Shown here: positions 2,345 through 64,000 of the stretch, one piece after another
How the letters are laid out: each line of letters opens with the position of its first letter
Numbering within the stretch: the stretch's first letter is position 1
Position numbers and translations under genes: made by a program
Notes under the pieces: model-generated
The model's database searches: none
Seen by the model: only the letters and a program-made list of their open reading frames with translations
Told to the model about the DNA's origin: nothing
Assembly: GCA_001831095.1 (NCBI GenBank)
Contig: MIDP01000039.1
Span: forward strand, 22,621 to 86,620
DNA: 64,000 nt
Reading direction: 5' to 3'
Origin: Verrucomicrobia bacterium GWF2_51_19
GTDB lineage: Bacteria > Verrucomicrobiota > Verrucomicrobiia > Opitutales > UBA12508

Positions 2345-3346
2345 ATGGACGAACTCGACAATACCCATCCCAAGCGCAACGAAGGCCTCTTTTTTTATTG
2401 TGTGCTCGATAGACAGGGCGGCGCCAGCTTTTTTTCGTCGTGGCGTACACTGTTCGATAACTGGAAAACTGACCATTTTATCTGGGTCCATCTCAATCAC
2501 CGCAGTCCAGCTGTTCAAAAATGGCTGAGGGAAGAGAGCGGCGTGCCTTCTGTAGTGGCCGAATCCATGCTCGAGGAGGACGTTCGCCCGCGCGAATACA
2601 CACATGAGGATGGCCTGTTGCTCCTTTTGCGCGGTGTCAATTTGAAGGAGGGCGCCGTCCCCGAAGACATGGTGTCTATGCGCCTCTGGATCACGAAAAA
2701 CCGCATCGTCACGCTGCGTTTTCGCGAAAATATGACAACGAAGTCAATCCAGGACGAGCTCATCACGCAAAAAGGCTTTCGCACGCCCAGCGGCTTTTTG
2801 CTAAAAATGCTCGACAACATGGTCACACCCATCGATTCCTCCATCGATGAAATCGACGCGCAGCTAGACGAAATCGAGGACGGACTGCTTCTCGCACGCA
2901 AGGAAATGACACTTTTGCCGACCATTCATATCCGCCAACGCATCGCCCATTTTCGAAAACACCTAGCCCCTCAACGCGACCTCTTGGGCAAACTCTTTCA
3001 CGAACACCTCTCGTGGCTCGACGAACGAGATTCACTCTTTATTCGCGAAGAGGCAGATACCGCCATTCGTTACATCGAAGAGCTCGACTTCCTCCGCGAG
3101 CGCTGCACCATCATTCAGGAAGAAGTCAATAACGCCCTCTCCTACACGATGAATTCCCGAATCTATTTGCTCGCCATCGCCACCGTCATCTTTATGCCGC
3201 TCACTCTCATGACGGGCCTCTTGGGCATCAACGTCAACGGCATTCCCTATTCGGACAGCAAATATGCCTTTTTCGGCGTCTGCGGACTCCTCGGTGTCAT
3301 GGCATTCTTTCTGTTCCGACTCCTAAAACGAAAGCGCTGGCTTTGA
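2345..3346 (+). CDS. zntB: CorA/ZntB-family divalent metal transporter
   Basis: 333 aa with a large cytoplasmic domain and two C-terminal TM helices. The LLGINVNGIP motif (GxN) resembles the ZntB GVNxGGIP signature. Confidence 0.7.
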   Translation: MDELDNTHPKRNEGLFFYCVLDRQGGASFFSSWRTLFDNWKTDHFIWVHLNHRSPAVQKWLREESGVPSVVAESMLEEDVRPREYTHEDGLLLLLRGVNLKEGAVPEDMVSMRLWITKNRIVTLRFRENMTTKSIQDELITQKGFRTPSGFLLKMLDNMVTPIDSSIDEIDAQLDEIEDGLLLARKEMTLLPTIHIRQRIAHFRKHLAPQRDLLGKLFHEHLSWLDERDSLFIREEADTAIRYIEELDFLRERCTIIQEEVNNALSYTMNSRIYLLAIATVIFMPLTLMTGLLGINVNGIPYSDSKYAFFGVCGLLGVMAFFLFRLLKRKRWL

Positions 3347-3477
3347 AAAGACAGGTGTAAAATAGCGCCAAAATGCGTTTCGCGCTCCGCCGACTGCCTT
3401 ACGTACGTCTTATGTACGCTACGGCAGATCGTACTCGCGCAAAGCCACATTTTTGCATCTATTTTACACCTGTCTTT
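3347..3477. repeat. R2 imperfect-palindrome repeat, copy 1
   Basis: Arms AAAGACAGGTGTAAAATAG (3347-3365) and CTATTTTACACCTGTCTTT (3459-3477). The interior GCGTTTCGCGCTCCGCCGACTGCC..CGTAC gtcttat GTACG..GGCAGATCGTACTCGCGCAAAGCC is homologous, inverted, to 3700-3790. Confidence 0.85.
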
Positions 3478-3480
3478 AAT

Positions 3481-3678
3481 CTAACTAAGCGAACACCAAC
3501 GGGTTTTTAGGCTATTTTGCATCAGTCTTAAAAGGTGAAAAGACCTCTCCTAACGGCTTTTTTAGGCAGGTTTTAACAACTTGCAAAACGTAAAACCCGT
3601 TGCAAAAGGCCGTCAAAGTTTGGCTTTGCATCTATTTTACAGCTGTCTTTAATCTAACCAAACGAACACCAACGATAT
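3481..3678. repeat. Degenerate or recombined R2-derived fragments
   Basis: AATCTAACNAANCGAACACCAACG is repeated at 3478-3501 and 3651-3674. An R2 left end (AAAACCCGTTGCAAAAGGCCGTCAAAGTTTGGCTTTGC) is fused to an R2 right end (ATCTATTTTACAGCTGTCTTT). Arm-like AAAGACCTCTCC is also present. Confidence 0.6.
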
Positions 3679-3807
3679 AAAACCCGTTGAAAAAGGCCGT
3701 CAAAGCTTGGCTTTGCGCGAGCACGATCTGCCGTAGCGTACATAGAGGTACGTGAGGCAGTCGGCGCAGCGCGAAACGAGCTTTCACGGCCTTTTTCAAC
3801 GGGTTTT
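3679..3807. repeat. R2 repeat, copy 2
   Basis: Arms AAAACCCGTTGAAAAAGGCCG (3679-3699) and CGGCCTTTTTCAACGGGTTTT (3787-3807) are perfectly complementary. The right arm touches the pntB stop codon (3806-3808). Confidence 0.85.
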
Positions 3808-7731: not shown

Positions 7732-7738
7732 CCCCTTC

Positions 7739-7862
7739 AAAGACCGATGAAAAAGGGCTCTATAGCAAGGCCCGAGGAGCGAGGGCGACAGGAGCGTACG
7801 TTGGTACGTGACTTAGCCCGAACGACGAGAACGCCGCTAGAGACCCTTTTGCATCGGTCTTT
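7739..7862. repeat. R1 repeat, copy 2 (opposite orientation)
   Basis: Arms AAAGACCGATGAAAAAGGG (7739-7757) and CCCTTTTGCATCGGTCTTT (7844-7862). The apical hairpin is CGTAC gttg GTACG. It fills the whole gap between convergent stops at 7731 and 7864. Confidence 0.9.
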
Positions 7863-7863
7863 T

Positions 7864-8985
7864 TCAGCGGCCTTTCCACAAGAGCTCAATAAAATGCAGC
7901 CATAGAAACGCGCGGAGGTGATTTTTGGGCAGAAACTGTTCGTATTGGGCGCATTTTTTAGTTGGGGCGTTGGCTAGGTGGAGGTTGTGGAGGTCAGCAT
8001 AGGAAAAGGCACCGTATTGGCGGTAGTGATCAACGGCCGCTGGAGTCAATTCCGGCAGGGATCCAAAGAGGTGCATGTGGCCGCGAACAACTTCTAAAAA
8101 CCAATCTTGTCGCATTGTCAACAGGAGGCCATTTTGCGCACCTTTTAGGGTTTTGTGCGGAATGTAAAAAGAGACGGTGGGATGTTTTTTGAAAAAGAGG
8201 CCCAGTGTTTTGGCGACACAGAAACAGCCGCTGGCGACAATGCGGTCTATAATTGGCACACTGTGCTGGACAAATGGGCTGCGTTTCGGCTTTTGGAAAG
8301 TCACCGTGGAGTCGTCGAAAGGCAGGCATTCTTTGCCATCGTGGACGCAGTTGTGCAAGACCGTCTTGGGGGGAATGTAGGTGTTTGGCGCAATCAAGAC
8401 ATTCGACAGGCGCGTTCCCTGACCGATACAGCTGCCGCGGCCGATGCGAACGTTGGGGCCAACCGTGACATGGTGTTCGATGCGGACATCCTTTTCAATC
8501 CAAATGGGGTCGCAAAACCGAATGCGTCCCCAATAGTCCCACCAAAAGGCGCAATTTTGGAGGTTGCCGCTGCTGTGCTCGCGCTGGAGCCATTGTTCAT
8601 TGAGCTGGTACCAGTACTTAATGAGTCCCTTTTGCGGCATGCTGTCTGGCGCCTTCAAGTACGGCAACCGGCTCATGACGTAGACCGAGCGATTGAGCAA
8701 TCCCGGGTGACTCGACAGGATGCGCAGGCGCAAAGAAATGTTGTGTTTTGCCAAAAAGGTGCGAATTTTTCGCGGCGATTCCGTGTATAGGTGGACCTGC
8801 GTCGCGCCCTTGTCCTTTGCGAACTGCAGCCAATGTTCCAAGAGCGAACGATCCCCCACCGGCCAGAGAACAAATGGATCGCGCGAAACGATAAGGGTGT
8901 CGAGATGCTTCCACGGAGGCGCCACCAGGCTTAAAATGCGCTCCTCACCGATTTCCCATTCCCTACTTGCCGAAAGTGCTTGCAC
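7864..8985 (-). CDS. Hexapeptide-repeat (left-handed beta-helix) protein with NTP-transferase-like N-terminus; function unknown
   Basis: 373 aa with GTG start. The central region EKDVRIEHHVTVGPNVRIGRGSCIGQGTRLSNVLIAPNTYI is an LbH repeat. The C-terminal part (IIDRIVASGCF..., GHMHLFGSLPE) faintly resembles sugar-transferase domains. Confidence 0.4.
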   Translation of the reverse strand: MQALSASREWEIGEERILSLVAPPWKHLDTLIVSRDPFVLWPVGDRSLLEHWLQFAKDKGATQVHLYTESPRKIRTFLAKHNISLRLRILSSHPGLLNRSVYVMSRLPYLKAPDSMPQKGLIKYWYQLNEQWLQREHSSGNLQNCAFWWDYWGRIRFCDPIWIEKDVRIEHHVTVGPNVRIGRGSCIGQGTRLSNVLIAPNTYIPPKTVLHNCVHDGKECLPFDDSTVTFQKPKRSPFVQHSVPIIDRIVASGCFCVAKTLGLFFKKHPTVSFYIPHKTLKGAQNGLLLTMRQDWFLEVVRGHMHLFGSLPELTPAAVDHYRQYGAFSYADLHNLHLANAPTKKCAQYEQFLPKNHLRAFLWLHFIELLWKGR

Positions 8986-9044: not shown

Positions 9045-9641
9045 CCCCTCAATCATTAGCGACATTTTATTACCGCGCATCGGTTTTCCGATGCGCCCTG
9101 GATGCGCCATTAGAGAGCTCGGCGGGTCTAGGAAGCCTTTTGTGGCGAACTCCTTCGGCGCTCGGGAGCGGCTTTGGCTGTGAAAAAACAAGATATTGAA
9201 ATGGATTTGTCGTTGTTTTTAGAAAAGAATCTTCAAATATAGTATTTTTATAAAAAGTCAAGCTTTTTCGTAAAAATTTTCGGCACGGCAGAAGCTCTTT
9301 TAATATTTACATAATCCAAAAAACAATCTCGATTCCCGCATTCTGGGCTGCATCTAGCATATGCGTTATAGCTCGATGGCTTTGATACTGCGTTGGGTAT
9401 TATATAGCTGTGTATATCGGCCCTAAATATAGCCTCGACGATTTATTGCAAAAAAGCTTGACTTTTTGTTTAAAAAATTATATCAGACATTAAATACAAA
9501 AAATGAATATTTAAAATCCCAATCAATATCAGATATTAAAAAAAGTCAGCCAAAGCCGCTCCCGAACGCAGAAGGAGTGCGCCACCAACAGATCACGAGA
9601 CCCGCCGAGTTCTCGCCAACTAAACGTCGAAGTGCAACACT
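9045..9641. repeat. L element, locus 1 (two divergent units plus central segment; right terminus missing)
   Basis: Terminus CCTCAATCATTAG at 9047-9059 and hairpin GCGCATCGG-tttt-CCGATGCGC at 9075-9096. The GC core spans 9097-9185 (minus strand). TTGACT boxes lie at 9261-9256 (minus) and 9458-9463 (plus). The locus is colinear with 24210-24600. Confidence 0.8.
9070..9261 (-). other. L-unit ORF (63 codons, TTG start inside the box); coding status unresolved
   Basis: Track ORF MTFYKNTIFEDSFLKTTTNPFQYLVFSQPKPLPSAEGVRHKRLPRPAELSNGASRAHRKTDAR. The C-terminal half is conserved with 24286..24597 and 9466..9651. No SD was seen. Confidence 0.35.
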
Positions 9642-14638: not shown

Positions 14639-14677
14639 AATATAGGCCAAATTAAACGTCTTTAACGCTGGCCTGTT

Positions 14678-14802
14678 AATCTCGTTGTTAAAATCGCTTC
14701 CAGCGGTGTTCCGCGTCACTCGGGCTAAGTCACTTACCTCAAGTAGACTCCTGTCGCCCTCACTCCGCAGGCCTTGCTGGAAGCGATTTTAACAACGAGA
14801 TT
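14678..14802. repeat. R1 repeat, copy 3 (divergent arms)
   Basis: The 24-nt arms AATCTCGTTGTTAAAATCGCTTCC and GGAAGCGATTTTAACAACGAGATT are perfectly complementary. The core is CGGGCTAAGTCAC TTAC ctcaa GTAG ACTCCTGTCGCCC. Confidence 0.85.
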
Positions 14803-14806
14803 TAGA

Positions 14807-17666: not shown

Positions 17667-17669
17667 ATA

Positions 17670-17793
17670 AAAGACCTCTCCAAAATGACCTCTAGCGGCG
17701 TTCTCGTCGTTTGGGCTAGGTCACGTACGTCAGTACGCTCCCGTCGCCCTCGCTCCTCGGGCCTTGCTATAGGCGCATTTTGAAGAGGTCTTT
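17670..17793. repeat. R1 repeat, copy 4
   Basis: Arms AAAGACCTCTCCAAAATG (17670-17687) and CATTTTGAAGAGGTCTTT (17776-17793) have one mismatch. The apical hairpin is CGTAC gtca GTACG. The element sits 4 nt from the yidC ATG. Confidence 0.9.
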
Positions 17794-20541: not shown

Positions 20542-20605
20542 AGACCGTTGCAAAATGGCGGCAGGACTCGAATAACGAGCTTTCCTCCGCATTTTGCAAC
20601 GGTCT
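20542..20605. terminator. Short R2-type hairpin (arms retained, interior mostly deleted); probable bidirectional terminator
   Basis: The 16-bp arms AGACCGTTGCAAAATG (20542-20557) and CATTTTGCAACGGTCT (20590-20605) are perfect and are followed by TTTTT. The loop ...CGAATAACGAGCTTTCCTCCG resembles the R2 right interior. It lies between convergent stops at 20527 and 20608. Confidence 0.65.
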
Positions 20606-23600: not shown

Positions 23601-24000
23601 ATAAAGAGCATCTGTTACGCCAGAGAATCGACGGTTTGTCAAAGATTTTCGTGCACGTCCTGCAAGCCCCTCAATCATTAGTGAATTTTTACTACCGCGC
23701 ATCGGTTTTTCGATGCTCCCTTGAATGCGCCGTTAGAAGTAGTAACTCACTCCAACTCTGCGTGTGGCAACACGCTCTGGATGCGCCATTAGAGAGCTCG
23801 GCGGGTCTCGGGAGCCGTTTGTGGCGCACTCCTTCTGGGCCCGAAAGCGGCTTTTGCTGATTTTTGAAAAATAGGCGGAGATTGATTAGGGGTTTAGAAT
23901 ATTAGATTTTTATATTTAATATCTATTGTGTTTTTTAAATAAAAAGTCAAGTTTTTTCGTAATAAATCGGCGATACCTTATTCCTAGGCGAAAGGCACAT

Positions 24001-24209
24001 CACTGTAATGCCCAACGCAGCATCAAAGCCGTCGAGCTATGGCGCATAGGCTCGTTGCGGCAAAGAATGCGGAAACAAAGCCGTCGAGTTATCGCCTGCA
24101 AGCTCGCTTCGGCCATATTCAGAGCCAAAAGGAACGTCACTGCAAGGTCCAACGCAGCGCCAAAGCCGTCGAGCTATGGCGTGTAGGCTCGTTGCGGCAA
24201 AGAATGCGT
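24001..24209 (+). repeat. Two 72-nt direct repeats in the centre of L locus 2
   Basis: CACTGTAATGCCCAACGCAGCATCAAAGCCGTCGAGCTATGGCGCATAGGCTCGTTGCGGCAAAGAATGCGG (24001-24072) is repeated at 24138-24209 with 8 differences by hand count. A partial CAAAGCCGTCGAGTTATCGCC lies between them. Confidence 0.8.
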
Positions 24210-24285
24210 GAATTGAGATTGATGTTTATTGATTATGTAAAGATTAAAAGAGCTTCTGCCGTGCTGAAAAATTTTACGAAAAAGC

Positions 24286-24597
24286 TTGACTTTTTACAAA
24301 AATACTATAATCAAGGATTTTTATATAAAAACAGCGACAAACCCATTTCAATATCTTGTTTTTTCGCAGCCCAAGCCGCTCTCGAATGCAGAAGGAGTGC
24401 GCCACAAACGGCTACCGAGACCCGCCGAGCTCTCTAATGGCGCATCGAGGGCGGCTTGCAGACGCGGACCAGTTAAAAATTCAGGGAAGTGTTTTCACCA
24501 TTTGGTGAAATTTAAATTAGAGCACACATGGCCATGCAAGCCTCAATTAGAAAGGGAAAGCGGTCGGCATGACTTGTTTTTCGCTAATGATGATTGA
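24286..24597 (+). other. L-unit ORF (103 codons, TTG start inside the box); coding status unresolved
   Basis: Track ORF MTFYKNTIIKDFYIKTATNPFQYLVFSQPKPLSNAEGVRHKRLPRPAELSNGASRAACRRG... Of 10 codon differences versus 9070..9261 across the 31-codon core, 8 are synonymous. Confidence 0.35.
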
Positions 24598-25720: not shown

Positions 25721-25972
25721 CCGAAGACCTACACAAAATGTCGTCAAAGCTTGGCTTTGCGCGAGTACAATCTGCCGTAATAGCAGCGTTATCCATCCGG
25801 CTTCGCCAATTTTTTTGCGAAATATAAAAATGCATGCATTTTTGTGTTTCGCTTTAAAAGTTTTTTGGAGAGGGGGTCGGGGAGAGACTTTTTTTCAAAA
25901 AAGTCTTTCCCCGTGGCCAGTCGGCGCAGCGCGAAACGAGCTTTCACGGCATTTTGTGTAGGTCTTCTTCGG
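25721..25972. repeat. R2 repeat with about 130 bp internal insertion
   Basis: Arms CCGAAGACCTACACAAAATG (25721-25740) and CATTTTGTGTAGGTCTTCTTCGG (25950-25972). R2 left and right interiors are separated by an unrelated AT-rich segment that contains the hairpin GGGGAGAGACTTTTTTT-c-AAAAAAGTCTTTCCCC. Confidence 0.8.
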
Positions 25973-35313: not shown

Positions 35314-35316
35314 ATT

Positions 35317-35436
35317 AGACCGATGATAAATGGTTTTCTGGCAAGGCCCGAGGAGAGAGGGCGACAGGAGCGTACATATGGTACGTGACTTAGCCCGAAA
35401 GACGAGAACGCCGCTAGAAACCATTTTGCATCGGTC
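35317..35436. repeat. R1 repeat, copy 5 (arms decaying), overlapping the dnaE 3' end
   Basis: Arms AGACCGATGATAAATGG and CCATTTTGCATCGGTC. The apical hairpin is CGTAC atatg GTACG. The dnaE stop TAG (35416-35414) is the CTAG of the conserved inner stem GCTAGA. Confidence 0.85.
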
Positions 35437-38400
35437 GCTTTTTGCGAAATGGTTTCTGGTATTCTGGGAGCTCTGCGACGGTCACCTCGACGGCTTTGAC
35501 GGCCGGGTGGCGTTGAAAAGCCTGAAAAGATTCTGGAGTCATGCGGCAAGCGAGGGATTTGGGAATGTCGCCGCCGAGGTAGAAGTGGTCGTTGAGTGAG
35601 AAGCCGATATTGACTTTTGTTGGGCCCTCATTGGCCTGGATAAAGGCCTCTAGCTTTTCGAGGAAATCGCGGGCGGCCTCGTTCGGGTGAAGGATGAAGC
35701 GATACTCTTTAATGAGGCCTGGCAGGCGATCGGGCAGGAGACAGTCCTGAACGGAGAGGCGCAATTGGTCATCTTTTTTCCGAACGGTGCCCTGCAAAAT
35801 GACGAGATTGCCGTCCGTGAAGAGGTGGCCGAACTTGGTAAAGGTGTCTGGAAAGGCGTTGATTTCGTACGATTCGTTTTTGGTCGACAGGCTGAAGAAG
35901 GCCCACGGGCGGTTATCTTTCTTGGTGAGGCGCTTGTTGACGTTTGAAATGACACCGCAGAGCCGAAAGCTTTCGCCGTCCGGCAAAAATTCAGCCTCGT
36001 GGGGCTTGAAGGAGTTCAGGCATTTATCGAGGCCGCAAAAACTGTCTAGCGGATGTCCGGAAATGTAGAAACCGAGCAGATCTTTTTCAAACTGCAACTT
36101 TTCCCGAAGCTCCATTTTCGGGCCATTGGTTGAGATCGTCATGTGGCTGTCTTCGGTTTCAAAGAAGTCAAACAGACTGCCTTGGCCGGCCTCTTTGTCC
36201 TTTTGAAGCGATGCCGCGGCGCTCAAGAGGCTCTCGAGGGAGTCAATAAGGTGTTGGCGGTCGACGTTCATAGTGTCGAAGCAGCCCGCACGAATGAGGC
36301 ACTCTAAGACACGTCTGTTGACGGCCCGGCCATCGACGCGGCTAACGAAGTCGGTAAAATCCTTGAAGGGCGGTTTGCGTTTTTCGAGAATGATGAGGGC
36401 CGCGCCATCACCGACTCCCTTAATGGCTCCCAGGCCGAATCGGATGGACGCCCCGCCTTCTTGAGTTGGCGTAAAGCTCTCCTGCGATTGGTTGATGTCG
36501 GGACCCAAAACGCGAATGCCCATGGCGTTGCATTCGTCGAGAAAGTGGGCGACCTTTTCGGCATTACCCAATTCGGATGATAGGACGGCGGCCATGAATT
36601 CGAGTGGGTAATTGGCCTTCAGGTAGGCGGTTCGGTAGGCCAACATGGCGTAGGCGGCGGAGTGGGACTTGTTAAAACCGTAGCCGGCGAACTTTTCCAA
36701 AATGCTAAAAATCTCTTCGGCCTTGGCGGCCTCGATGCCGTTGGTCTTTTGCGCGCCCGCCACAAAGATCGCCCGCTGTTCGTTCATGACCTCTGCTTTC
36801 TTTTTTCCCATCGCGCGACGGAGAATGTCGGCCCCTCCCAGCGTGTAACCGGCGATCACTTGGGCGGCCTCCATGACTTGTTCCTGGTAGACCATGATGC
36901 CGTAGGTTTCTTTGCAGATGGCTTCCAGCAATGGGTGAGTCACGGCGATGGTCGACGGGTCTTTTTTGCCGCGAATGTACTCGGGAATCCACTCCATTGG
37001 CCCTGGGCGGTAGAGGGCGATGAGGGCGATAATTTCGTCGATGTTGGAGATTGAAAACTGCCGACAGAGGCTCTGCATGCCGCCGCCTTCCAATTGAAAA
37101 ACGCCAACCGTGCGTGCCTCATTCATGAGCTTGAAGGCCGCCGGGTCTTCGAGGGAGACTTTTTCGATATCGAAATGGGGGTCTTTGCCCGACCGACGAA
37201 TGTTGGCCTCGGCTTCGGCGATGATGGTCAGCGTTTTCAGGCCAAGAAAGTCCATTTTCAGAATGCCGAGGGCTTCGATGTGATCTTTCGAATACTGTGT
37301 CGTCAGGGCGCCTTCCTGCAGTGTGACGGGGACAAAGTCGACGACAGGCCTGTCGCAAATAATGACGCCTGCCGCGTGGGTGCCCGAATTTCGGACCATG
37401 CCCTCGATGATGCGGCCCTCGTCAAAGATTTTCTCGACGAGCGCATTGGTGTCGCACTCGCGCCTTAGCTCTTTTGACTTTCTCAGGGCGCTATCGAGGG
37501 TCATATTGAGCTCGTCTGGCACCATTTTGGCGATGCGATCCGCCTCGGCATAGGGGAAATCGTTGACGCGGGCGAGGTCGCGAATGACCATCTTGGCGCC
37601 AAAAGTGCCAAAGGTGATGATGTTGGCCACGGCATCTTGACCGTACTTTCGACGTACGTAATCAATGACTTCACCGCGGCGGCGCATGCAGAAGTCGATG
37701 TCGAAGTCGGGTGGTGAGACGCGTTCTGGGTTGAGGAAACGTTCGAAGAGGAGCTTGAAGCGGAGGGGGTCGATGTCGGTGATTTTCAGGGCATAGGCGA
37801 CCAGGCTGCCTGCACCAGAGCCTCGTCCGGGTCCGACCGGTATGCGTTGCTCGCGGGCCCATCGAATGAAGTCCCAGACGATGAGAAAGTAATCCAAAAA
37901 GCCGGCGTTCCGAATGATTTTCAGCTCGTGATCGAGACGCTCCATGAGTGTTTTTGAGAGCGCCGCATCTTGCTCGTACGACGTCCCGTAGCGGTCTTTT
38001 AGGCCCTGTTTACAGAGCTCGTAAATGTAGCTGAAGTTGTCGACAGTGACTTCGACTGGACGTTGAAAGACTGGGTAATGGTTTTCGCCAAATGGAATCT
38101 TGAGGGCGCACATTTCGGCTACGAGGAGGGTGTTGTCGAGGGCGTCCTGACGCTCGCTGAAAACTTTGGCCATCTCGTCGCGCGATTTTATAAAATACTG
38201 GTGTTCGGGCATCCGCATGCGGTCTTCATCAGCGAGCTTTGAACCCGTCTGAATGCACAGTAGGGCGTCGTGCGCCTCCCAGTCGGATTGATAGACGTAA
38301 TGGGAGTCGTTTGTACAAACCACCTTGACGCCAAACTTGTCTGCCAAACAAAACAACTTTGGAACCACCTTTATTTGTTCCTCAATGCCGTGATTCTGGA

Positions 38401-43327: not shown

Positions 43328-43337
43328 AATATTGCAT

Positions 43338-43582
43338 AAGACCATTGCAAAAGTGTCTCTAGCAGCGTTCTTCCCACAGGCAAATGTGGCAATAAGTTCG
43401 TTATCCATCGTGATTCGCCTAGGTCACGCATTTCAATGCGCTCCCGTCGGCTCACACTCGGAAGCCTGCTTCTTGCCCCATTTGCCTGCGGGACTGTCGT
43501 TTGGGCTAGGTCACGTACCAACGTACGCTCCCGTCGCCCTCGCTCCTCGGGCCTGGCTATAGAACCATTTTTCAACGGTCTT
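43338..43582. repeat. R1 composite: one R1 nested inside another
   Basis: Outer arms are AAGACCATTGCAAAAGTG (43338-43355) and CATTTTTCAACGGTCTT (43566-43582). The inner element, about 43376-43490, has its own arms CACAGGCAAATG and CATTTGCCTG and an apical hairpin CGCAT ttca ATGCG. The host core resumes with GTCGTTTGGGCTAGGTCAC CGTAC caac GTACG. Confidence 0.75.
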
Positions 43583-43657
43583 ATATTGGGAGTTCGTCTC
43601 CCAATTTGCAAGGCGAAACCAAATAAAACGGATGAGTTTTTACAGTCTCTTACGATT

Positions 43658-48752: not shown

Positions 48753-48881
48753 ACTGCCTACATGATAGCATTTTTATAACCCACTGGTCAATGCTGAAAA
48801 AATATAAGTTTAGACTAGAAAAAATACTCAAGAACTGCTTTGCTAATGTCAACTCTCTTTAATATTAACATCAAGGAGCGA

Positions 48882-49003
48882 GCCGGCATGAAAAATGGCT
48901 CTAGAGCAAGGCCCGAGGAGCGAGGGCGACAGGAGCCTACTTAAGGTAGGTGACTTAGCCCGAACGCCGCGAAACGCCGCTATAGACCATTTTCCGTGTC
49001 GGC
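48882..49003. repeat. R1 repeat, copy 7
   Basis: Arms GCCGGCATGAAAAATGG and CCATTTTCCGTGTCGGC; two of the three arm differences are G:T-type. The apical hairpin is CCTAC ttaag GTAGG. The element ends 7 nt before the ybaB ATG. Confidence 0.85.
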
Positions 49004-49010
49004 CAGAATT

Positions 49011-49319
49011 ATGGCAGGTGTAGGAAAATTACTCAAGCAAGCACAAAAGATGCAAAAGCAAATGGAGCAGCTCCAGCAGGAACAGGCTCAGAAACGTTAC
49101 GAGGTGTCGGGTGGCGGCGGGGCTGTCAAGGCAACAGTCAACGGCCAGGGTGAGCTGTTGGCGCTCGCGATCGACGCCGAATTTCTCAAGGAAGACAAGG
49201 GGCTGATCGAAGAGACGCTCTTGTCGACCATTCAGGAAGCGATGCGTAAGGCCAAGGCCAACAGCGAATCGGCAATGCAGGGCCTTTCGGGCGGCTTGGG
49301 CTTCCCGGGACTGATGTAA
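49011..49319 (+). CDS. ybaB: Nucleoid-associated protein YbaB/EbfC
   Basis: MAGVGKLLKQAQKMQKQMEQLQ...VSGGGGAVKATVNGQGELLAL. Confidence 0.9.
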   Translation: MAGVGKLLKQAQKMQKQMEQLQQEQAQKRYEVSGGGGAVKATVNGQGELLALAIDAEFLKEDKGLIEETLLSTIQEAMRKAKANSESAMQGLSGGLGFPGLM

Positions 49320-56548: not shown

Positions 56549-56675
56549 AAAAAGACCTCTGCAAAAAGACCTCTAGCGGCGTTCTCGTCGCTTGGGCTAA
56601 GTCACCTACGTTAGTAGGCTCCTGTCGCCCTCACTCCTCGGGCCTTGCTATAGGTCCTTTTGCAGAGGTCTTTTT
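56549..56675. repeat. R1 repeat, copy 8
   Basis: Arms AAAAAGACCTCTGCAAAAAG (56549-56568) and CCTTTTGCAGAGGTCTTTTT (56656-56675). The apical hairpin is CCTAC gtta GTAGG. The element directly abuts the sufS ATG (56548). Confidence 0.9.
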
Positions 56676-62411: not shown

Positions 62412-62459
62412 TGGTATGGTGTTGTACAACAAAGCCAACGCTTGTCAATTAAGACCGTT

Positions 62460-62581
62460 AAGACCGTTGCAAAATGTCCTCTAGCGGCGTTCTCGTCGTT
62501 CGGGCTAAGTCACGTACCAACGTACGCTCCTGTCGCCCTCGCTCCTCGGGCCTTGCTATAGAACCATTTTTCAACGGTCTT
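62460..62581. repeat. R1 repeat, copy 9
   Basis: Arms AAGACCGTTGCAAAATG (62460-62476) and CATTTTTCAACGGTCTT (62565-62581), with an extra AAGACCGTT duplicated at 62451-62459. The apical hairpin is CGTAC caac GTACG. Confidence 0.9.
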
Positions 62582-62623
62582 ACACATCATAAATTATTAA
62601 TAAACAAAGATTTATGAAGCATG

Positions 62624-62733
62624 TTATCAAAGCTTGGCTTTGCGCGAGCACGGACCTGCCGTAGTGTACATAGATGTACGTGTGGCCAGTCGGCGAAGCG
62701 TAAAACGAGTTTGCACTGCATTTTGCATATGCG
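62624..62733. repeat. R2 repeat (left arm missing)
   Basis: TCAAAGCTTGGCTTTGCGCGAGCACGGACCTGCCGTAGTGTACATAGATGTACGTGTGGCCAGTCGGCGAAGCGTAAAACGAGTTTGCACTGCATTTTGCATATGCG aligns with 3700-3800. Confidence 0.75.
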
Positions 62734-62768
62734 TCAACTTTGGCACCGTAATTGCTTCTTTAGGAGTT

Positions 62769-63555: not shown

Positions 63556-63675
63556 AAGACCTCCTCAAAATGAGCCTATAGCCAGGCCCGAGGAGGGAGG
63601 GCGACAGGAGCCTACTGACGTAGGTGACTTAGCCCGAGCGACTAGAACGCCGTGGGCCATTTTCAGGAGGTCTTT
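63556..63675. repeat. R1 repeat, copy 10
   Basis: Arms AAGACCTCCTCAAAATG (63556-63572) and CATTTTCAGGAGGTCTTT (63658-63675). The apical hairpin is CCTAC tgac GTAGG. The right arm ends at the flgG ATG. Confidence 0.9.
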
Positions 63676-64000
63676 ATGTTCCTAGCACTTACAACAGCAG
63701 CCACCGGCATGGAAGCCCAGCAAATGTACTTAAACATCATTGCTGACAACCTCGCCAATGCCAACACGAATGGTTACAAGAAGACCAAGACGGACTTCAA
63801 GGACCTGATGTACCAAAACCAGGGCCTGGGCGCAGACACCGGCACGGGCGCCGTCACGCCAAACGGCATTCAGATTGGCAATGGCACGCGTCTGGTCTCT
63901 ACCAGCAAGGTTTTCACGCAGGGCCAATTGACGCAAACTGGCGAAGAGATGGACTTTTCTATCGAGGGTGATGGTTTTTTTGAAGTCGAGATGCCAGATG
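63676..64000 (+). CDS. flgG: Flagellar basal-body rod protein FlgG, N-terminal part (runs off window end)
   Basis: Hand translation gives MFLALTTAATGMEAQQMYLNIIADNLANANTNGYKKTKTDFKDLMYQ...QGQLTQTGEEMDFSIEGDGFFEV. Confidence 0.85.
   Translation, partial: MFLALTTAATGMEAQQMYLNIIADNLANANTNGYKKTKTDFKDLMYQNQGLGADTGTGAVTPNGIQIGNGTRLVSTSKVFTQGQLTQTGEEMDFSIEGDGFFEVEMPD

Follow-up and report, generated by a model that had tools for sequence, protein, structure and literature searches.

A family of dispersed hairpins, designated R1, was found in a 64,000-nt stretch of contig MIDP01000039.1 (positions 22,621-86,620; hereafter the window) from the groundwater metagenome-assembled genome (MAG) Verrucomicrobia bacterium GWF2_51_19. 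R1 is a lineage-restricted, rod-like hairpin repeat of ~125 nt and part of a superfamily with one common arm format. It probably occupies ribosome-binding site (RBS) regions, with a Shine-Dalgarno (SD)-like motif accommodated either in the 3' arm of the hairpin or 5' of its stem, and an SD inside the arm would be base-paired in the folded RNA. For the gaps in front of flgG, sufS and yidC, a sequence-only reading had proposed that one R1 arm provides the SD and the other arm its complement.

Besides the window, 59 loci (L001-L059, 525 kb) were collected from three Joint Genome Institute (JGI) metagenome data sets in a metagenome scan with the R1 core pattern. Together with the window they make up 590 kb, a repeat-centred contig sample to which the counts below refer unless the window is named. 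The two assemblies supplying 58 of the 59 loci overlap each other at 99.7-100% identity and share no overlap with the window at the DNA or protein level. Most simply, these loci are remaining contigs of the same organism or population as the window. The SufS encoded in the window matches a GWF2_51_19 protein at 100% identity, and the closest other SufS homologue is 55% identical. The best DnaE matches, from Opitutales/Puniceicoccales MAGs, are 52-58% identical. The source being a MAG with no relative close enough for reconstructing ancestral sites, orthologous empty sites that would preserve the ancestral RBS were not recoverable, and a Logan contig with an identical SufS protein breaks inside R1.

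The 21-nt R1 core pattern matched nine times in the window, where 0.02 matches were expected, and a tenth window copy was identified by an nhmmer profile search. In the whole sample, nhmmer returned 143 hits, corresponding to 90-93 unique full copies or about one per 6 kb. The core pattern had no matches in the GTDB representative genomes (one genome per species) or in the IMG/VR viral contigs, and nhmmer found no R1 in loci totalling 1.4 Mb that had been retrieved through DnaE similarity, ~11 of them from Opitutales/Verrucomicrobia MAGs. Rfam searches gave only a tRNA above the gathering threshold in the window, and nothing relevant at E <= 10 for the R1 copy in front of flgG. The element is non-coding, as no open reading frame (ORF) is kept across copies and loop indels of 1-2 nt break any frame.

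R1 arms follow the format AAGACC-N5-AAAATGG-NNC-TATAGC ... GCTAGAG-GNN-CATTTT-N5-GGTCTT and enclose a nearly invariant core of ~75 nt (AAGGCCCGAGGAGCGAGGGCGACAGGAGC-hairpin-GTGACTTAGCCCGAACGACGAGAACGCCGC); ~10 copies have wholly different arm sequences. The predicted fold is one continuous rod of ~43 pairs, of which ~25-27 belong to the outer arms, and these arms pair in nearly all copies. The rod is interrupted by purine-rich internal loops with three 5'-GA/3'-AG tandem mismatches, and it contains an invariant G.U pair. For the flgG copy, a folding energy of -56.4 kcal/mol was predicted (z-score -4.4).

This structure is strongly supported by covariation. Double, compensatory changes were found in 27 of the 43 pairs and 90% of cells are paired, a level reached in none of 500 shuffles, whereas slid controls gave 30-42% paired cells. 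The inner hairpin alternates between G-C and C-G (54:29) and a neighbouring pair between A-U and G-C (62:22); even the isolated G-C pair between two G.A tandems has two compensatory C-G cases. In 81 of 86 copies, the sense RNA is predicted to fold better than the complementary strand (means of -58.1 and -52.0 kcal/mol, p = 2e-14), and in the outer stem GU/UG combinations outnumber AC/CA by 67 to 23. An invariant interior combined with free, compensated arms suggests that R1 has a function which depends on its structure, and that some factor would read the core.

The placement of R1 is strongly asymmetric. Of 90 copies, 45 have a gene start within 20 nt past the 3' arm, whatever the arm type, compared to 3 with one past the 5' arm (p = 1e-10); the distance from the end of the 3' arm to the start codon is 2-18 nt in half of all copies. 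In co-directional gaps, 39 copies are in sense and 11 in antisense orientation (p = 9e-5); convergent gaps contain 16 further copies and divergent gaps 13. The strand of R1 mostly follows the flanking genes, and in the window the annotated copies match the gene on their 3' side. The direction of the genes next to R1 changes repeatedly within the 64 kb and the orientation of R1 tracks it, which points to transcription rather than replication. By its behaviour R1 is thus an intergenic repeat that is strongly biased towards sense and has its 3' end tight against ORF boundaries, and it is not specific to 5' untranslated regions. We infer that it is mostly co-transcribed in sense with the gene on its 3' side. 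The genes downstream of R1 are diverse housekeeping genes, among them rpiB, recN, mpl, flhB, lepA, rplN, groES, obg, ychF, fabH, sucD and mnmG, as read from their N-terminal translations; those led by R1 in the window and confirmed by Pfam include ybaB, yidC, sufS and flgG.

All three arm SD sites and complementary partners given for flgG, sufS and yidC in the sequence-only reading were recovered as quoted (Table 1), and Pfam identified the surrounding genes as encoding FlgF/FlgG, MetK, a SufS-type class-V aminotransferase, YidD, YidC and RnpA. The same reading had held that arm sequence correlates with context, and this extends to all 90 unique copies. The variable N5 segment of the right arm ends in GAGG or GGGG in 12 unique copies, all of which stand in front of a gene. 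With automatically called genes, 10 of these 12 are start-adjacent compared to 35 of the 78 copies with other arms (Fisher p = 0.027), and after curation 11-12 of 12 (p = 0.0005), which is the enrichment of GAGG next to start codons that had been put forward for checking. Of the start-adjacent copies, about a quarter end in this motif. The eleventh copy (L058) has ATGATG 8 nt past GAGG and an ORF that runs off the locus. In nine of the ten automatically called cases GAGG lies 4-8 nt from the start, and the median distance of 6.5 nt is shorter than the 10 nt from arm to start in the other copies (p = 0.003). This position matches the peak of GGAG, GAGG and AGGA at -14 to -9 genome-wide. Because the arms are symmetrical, GAGG also appears in them when the antisense strand is read, and in that reading none is start-adjacent; among the arms of a sister family, R2, 0 of 48 are of the GAGG type.

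In start-adjacent copies with other arms, an SD-like 4-mer at -18 to -4 was found in only 1 of 35, and the arm is therefore the only place left for a conventional SD when R1 fronts a gene. The converse claim, that copies in convergent gaps carry non-SD segments, applied to the CGATG copies (7737-7868 and 35314-35445); the CGTTG copies, which had been included, lie in divergent and co-directional gaps.

When the full-element transcript was folded, the predicted unpaired probability of the in-arm GAGG was ~0 in 10 of 12 copies, and the start codon was ~45% open. A locked RBS is therefore what thermodynamics predict for the in-arm SD. The stem of 18-20 bp originally proposed as the lock is not an isolated helix; it forms the base of the rod described above. 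The left-arm CCUC may have been selected as an anti-SD. As the stem is conserved in every context, it may also be no more than the compensatory change by which the rod is preserved.

A second placement of an SD-like motif was observed in copies without a GAGG arm, which were searched for AAGG, AGGA or GGAG within the 12 nt directly 5' of the stem. Such a motif is present in 15 of 35 start-adjacent and 3 of 43 non-adjacent copies (p = 0.0003). In other hairpin families the corresponding numbers are 4 of 12 and 2 of 80, and on the antisense reading of R1 the motif occurs in 2 of 68 copies. With the hairpin left out, the distance from SD to AUG is ~2-9 nt, as estimated by eye. Two linker families ending in AAAGG(A/T)A account for most of the 15 copies, and linker variants without AGG go with non-adjacent copies. 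These events are therefore not independent and are treated as a lead rather than a result; the ybaB copy has a unique flank. As a lead, ybaB and ~14 other copies would represent split RBSs, in which the folded hairpin brings SD and AUG together. This would need a folded hairpin during initiation, which is hard to square with a simple on/off lock.

Combining these observations, the following mechanism is proposed, in which transcription through R1, the use of the motifs as SD and any unlocking step are all conditional. The hairpin would physically fill the ribosome-binding region in half of the R1 copies; where a gene needs an SD, one would have been gained or kept, either within the arm or at the stem base on its 5' side. 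In one arrangement, (G)GAGG would occupy the variable 5-nt segment of the 3' arm, 4-8 nt from the start, with a compensatory CCUC(C) in the 5' arm keeping the stem. In the other, the SD would lie directly 5' of the stem and folding would join it to the AUG. With the in-arm SD paired after folding, flgG, sufS and yidC would be translated at a damped level, or their translation would require either that the 30S subunit melt the stem bottom or that an RNase III-type enzyme cut the stem. In-arm SDs would then work at reduced efficiency, or after opening of the stem bottom. A cut would free the arm SD but sever the split sites, and can therefore not be the general rule.

Several points weigh against this proposal. 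Co-transcription and folding in vivo both rest on inference, an SD that is fully paired in a stem of this length would normally abolish initiation, and the two SD placements make opposite demands on folding. Among the GAGG-type copies, one has a spacing of 13 nt to the start, and the twelfth, in front of fabF (L017), is followed by no canonical start codon (ATG, GTG or TTG). These copies also have a left-flank box (AATCAACNACAA) and a CAAAGACC end in common, so that they are partly a subfamily and not 12 independent events. The use of SD motifs is low, with GGAG, GAGG or AGGA at -18 to -4 in 65 of 382 called genes (17%) against a background of 10%. This low use explains why most R1-led genes manage without an SD; leaders in the window and in L001-L059 are A-rich. 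A search of the window and loci for a 16S rRNA, which might bear a CCUCC tail, found none. Furthermore, genes were called with a simple home-made codon-usage caller, and the R1 copies are related by descent, which makes the p-values optimistic. Gene identities are Pfam-confirmed in the window, and most of those in the loci were assigned by reading N-terminal translations.

In the fabF locus (L017:4400-4760, minus strand), one frame stays free of stops from an ATG situated 33 nt 5' of R1, across the entire element and on into fabF. R1 may have inserted in frame here, in the manner of the Rickettsia palindromic elements; alternatively, translation of fabF may begin at a non-canonical codon.

The shared flank box and CAAAGACC end would also be expected if GAGG/CCTC were the diagnostic of one R1 subfamily, SD-like by chance and hitch-hiking on the general placement of R1, half of whose copies are start-adjacent anyway, in a genome of low SD use. 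We regard this as quite unlikely. Start adjacency of 10-12 out of 12 is improbable at a base rate of ~0.45-0.5 (p = 0.03 to 0.0003), the spacing of GAGG to the start is tighter and shorter than that of other arms, GAGG arms occur on at least four core haplotypes, and the independent placement of an SD 5' of the stem has the same context dependence. Somewhat less unlikely, though still not favoured, is that R1 serves operon punctuation: RNase III or another endonuclease would cut the duplex, split the cistrons and leave a short leader, with GAGG freed once the 5'-arm fragment dissociates or is degraded. The continuous duplex of ~25 bp, extending into the 43-pair rod, would suit such an enzyme, and by the predicted fold the in-arm SD would become accessible only after removal of the stem. 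A review documents, for Correia elements, cleavage by RNase III at the terminal inverted repeats and, for enterobacterial repetitive intergenic consensus (ERIC) sequences, effects involving RNase E (PMC10969869). However, in ybaB and the 14 other copies with a 5' SD the cut would part the SD from its AUG. Cleavage of R1 is itself a postulate, and RNase III, with its little sequence specificity, would leave the invariant core unexplained.

A purely DNA-level role, in which R1 would be a mobile or recombinogenic hairpin, for example the substrate of an HUH/Y1-type transposase like repetitive extragenic palindromic (REP) elements and their hairpin-forming doublets (REPINs), and RNA effects would be by-products that are tolerated or patched by re-creating the SD, appears doubtful to a similar degree as chance hitch-hiking. 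The many dispersed copies, an element nested at the same position of the R1 core in two copies and hairpin-linker arrays resembling bacterial interspersed mosaic elements (BIMEs) speak for it, re-creation of the SD is compatible with it, and compensatory maintenance of hairpins is known for REPINs. However, direct repeats flanking AAGACC...GGTCTT are no commoner than around shuffled pairs (k = 1-6), and a TA duplication is inseparable from a 1-bp extension of the palindrome, so that no target-site duplication was found. No cognate transposase or autonomous element was detected among arm pairs 0.6-3.5 kb apart in the 590 kb, where the flanked genes are ordinary; the sampled DNA yielded no candidate for a REP-associated tyrosine transposase (RAYT), and R1 bears no GTAG/CGTC tag. 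The repeated switching of R1 orientation with gene direction also argues against a DNA-level role, as does the G.U-type asymmetry favouring the transcribed strand, which single-stranded DNA of that strand could still explain. That the stem with its flanking A-run and T-run (AAAAGACC...GGTCTTTT) is a (bidirectional) intrinsic terminator or attenuator, with GAGG irrelevant, would agree with copies that tightly fill convergent gaps (7737-7868 and 35314-35445) and is nevertheless very unlikely. The T-run is often just 2-3 T, and in the 45 copies with a start codon within 20 nt a promoter could not fit in between, so transcription must generally read through them. A terminator scan flagged no R1 copy, but its loop limit of 3-8 nt excludes R1 by design. 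Internal promoters, a terminator role and purely DNA-level explanations found little or only partial support, and accommodation of an SD-like motif in or beside the hairpin remains the preferred reading.

Regarding promoters, the best candidates inside R1 by eye (TAGAGG and TATAGA) end without the T that is conserved as the last base of -10 boxes. A sigma-70 scan placed no promoter inside any R1 body; two low-scoring sites, antisense to the minus-strand gene, start at the outer end of the left arm of the sufS copy and run into the flank. The left flanks contain no consistent promoter. Other identities considered for R1 were likewise rejected. By eye, two base pairs separate a 3-nt bulge from the tandem G.A, which does not agree with a canonical k-turn, and the hammerhead-like CCGAGGA...GAA has a misfitting topology and no Rfam hit. 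A mini-ORF AUG-NNN-CUA-UAG in the left arm was dismissed, as several copies, including that of sufS, have no ATG, and peptide coding on the antisense strand is broken by the loop indels. Insertion of R1 into older small terminator hairpins was not supported either, because no empty AAGACC-N5-loop-N5-GGTCTT hairpins were found and sizes peak sharply at 110-130 nt.

The window features are collected in Table 1. Hairpins of the R2 family share the arm format AAGAC(C)-N5-AAAAT with R1 and have a different core (CAAAGCTTGGCTTTGCGCGAG ... GCGTAC-loop-GTACGTGAGGCAG). They are often arranged head-to-head with R1 across a linker of ~30 nt, giving BIME-like arrays, and the hairpin-linker-R1 arrays use 3-4 recurrent linker families. 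A third family, R3, has the arms CCCGCAGGCAAATGGGGC / GCCACATTTGCCTGTGGG and an inner hairpin that resembles that of R1. The R1::R3 composite also occurs, with different outer arms, in L030/L034, which suggests either site-specific insertion or spread of the composite. For the R1 copy at 43337-43585, an IS110-type insertion was considered and rejected: the insert is the R3 hairpin, and the neighbouring gene, which starts a few nt past the right arm, encodes a 406-aa AAA_14/DUF4143 ATPase.

Table 1. R1 copies, candidate SD motifs and sister hairpins in the window (positions 1-64,000).
Feature	Position	Strand	Details
R1 copy, flgF/flgG gap	63556-63675	+	left arm 63556-63582, core ~63583-63651, right arm 63652-63675
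GGAGG, candidate SD in flgG right arm (CATTTTCAGGAGGTCTTT)	63666-63670	+	spacer TCTTT (5 nt), ATG 63676-63678
CCTCC in left arm of flgG copy	63560-63564	+	pairs with GGAGG
R1 copy, metK/sufS gap	56549-56675	-	
AGAGG, candidate SD of sufS	56560-56556	-	7-nt spacer, ATG 56548-56546; partner CCTCT 56668-56664
R1 copy, yidD/yidC gap	17667-17793	-	
GGAGAGG, candidate SD of yidC	17681-17675	-	8-nt spacer, ATG 17666-17664; partner CCTCTTC 17788-17782
R1 copy upstream of ybaB, candidate split RBS (span includes AAGGAG and ATG)	48873-49013	+	AAGGAG 48873-48878, 3 nt, stem ~48882-49005, 5 nt, ATG 49011-49013; unique flank
R1 copy, CGATG segment, filling convergent gap	7737-7868	+	upstream LptA-like gene ends 7731; facing hexapeptide-transferase TGA 7864-7866
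R1 copy, CGATG segment, convergent gap ftsA/dnaE	35314-35445	+	
R1 copy, CGTTG segment, divergent gap truB/flgF	62459-62583	-	followed by R2-family hairpin 62598-62735
R1 copy, CGTTG segment, co-directional gap	43337-43585	-	core interrupted by R3 hairpin 43374-43495
R1 copy, divergent, downstream of rpsT	14677-14805	-	next gene start ~155 nt away
R1 copy, TAGATG segment	373-502	-	adjoins acyltransferase gene
R2 hairpin	3345-3475	-	
R2 hairpin	3678-3806	+	
R2 hairpin	25722-25965	+	internal insertion
R2 hairpin	62598-62735	+	
R3 hairpin (122 nt)	43374-43495	-	nested in R1 core right after ..CCCAAACGAC

The 3' arm of 27 R1 copies faces a gene on the opposite strand. In ~18 of these cases, the called ORF terminates no further than ~30 nt from where the arm ends, mostly with an overlap. 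R1 may thus supply or displace stop codons, as reported for ERIC (e.g. the TGA at 7864-7866). At 62451-62469 of the window an R1 arm end is duplicated in tandem (AAGACCGTT-AAGACCGTTG), with a similar duplication in L052, which may be the footprint of slippage or of an earlier element. A mini-hairpin of 64 nt (20542-20605) has R1-type arms (AGACCGTTGCAAAATGG...CATTTTGCAACGGTCT) around a short, unrelated centre. Larger repeats of several hundred nt, 72-88% identical, were also observed (9045-9614 and 23667-24434, with tandem copies at 23976-24208, and in L008, L016, L019, L020 and L022).

The usual view of small intergenic repeats is that they are junk, or terminators or RNase sites at best. R1 sits in the ribosome-binding region of dozens of essential genes, including yidC, sufS, flgG, groES, rplN, lepA and obg, and its invariant core represents a structured motif of RNA (or DNA) that is so far uncharacterised. 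If confirmed, the proposed accommodation of SD motifs would show the co-evolution of a spreading hairpin element with host translation signals, and it would offer a natural set of occluded and bridged RBSs for studying initiation on structured leaders in an SD-sparing lineage. In a much bolder version, which we consider improbable, R1 and its sister families would form a sense-oriented structured-RNA module in the initiation regions of at least 50 housekeeping genes. The ribosome would initiate across the folded 125-nt rod, with SD and AUG on either side of the stem base or the SD in the arm, and the purine-rich core with its tandem G.A and fixed G.U would dock a dedicated trans-acting factor or nuclease that sets the R1-led genes jointly. 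If true, this would be a regulon wired by a dispersed RNA element.

Among known systems, ERIC of Yersinia and enterobacteria and the Correia elements/Neisseria miniature insertion sequences (NEMIS) are, like R1, intergenic repeats of ~100-150 nt with long inverted arms that form RNA hairpins. As described in the review cited above, ERIC and Correia elements are co-transcribed with their neighbours, show a context-dependent orientation bias, lie near or overlap ORF ends and affect mRNA processing (PMC10969869). With MITEs (miniature transposable elements with inverted repeats) R1 has in common the many small, dispersed, non-coding copies and the terminal inverted repeats. In R1, however, the interior is invariant and the arms drift and covary, whereas in MITEs it is the reverse. 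An SD/anti-SD pair in the arms, or an RBS split by the stem, is not among the MITE functions in that one review, as searched for these terms (PMC10969869). R1 most resembles the ERIC/Correia-type intergenic repeats, yet fails other defining features of MITEs.

REP sequences are 20-40 nt long and carry a GTAG or CGTC tag (PMC3733652). REP, BIME and REPIN elements resemble R1 in forming hundreds of extragenic palindromes, mosaic arrays with specific linkers, and compensated stems; unlike REP, R1 is ~125 nt long, with a structured, conserved core and no terminal tag. Integron attC sites, in which R''/R' (RYYYAAC/GTTRRRY) bound cassettes, were rejected as a model, as the R1 arms read AAGACC.../...GGTCTT and the neighbours are housekeeping genes (dnaE, ftsA, yidC, metK and rpsT).

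For the split arrangement, a parallel exists in genes 38 and 25 of phage T4, where SD and AUG lie apart and are brought to working distance by an intervening stem-loop. The T4 bridging hairpins are small and unique to their genes, whereas R1 is a 125-nt repeat whose function is deduced from motif-context statistics. For the in-arm arrangement, the parallel is with RBS-occluding mRNA hairpins, such as RNA thermometers and the RNase III-activated adhE leader of E. coli, in which the SD is paired upstream and melting or cleavage is needed. Those hairpins are gene-specific leaders, whereas R1 is repeated at dispersed sites and has a large conserved core; the likeness lies in an SD that is paired to an upstream complement.

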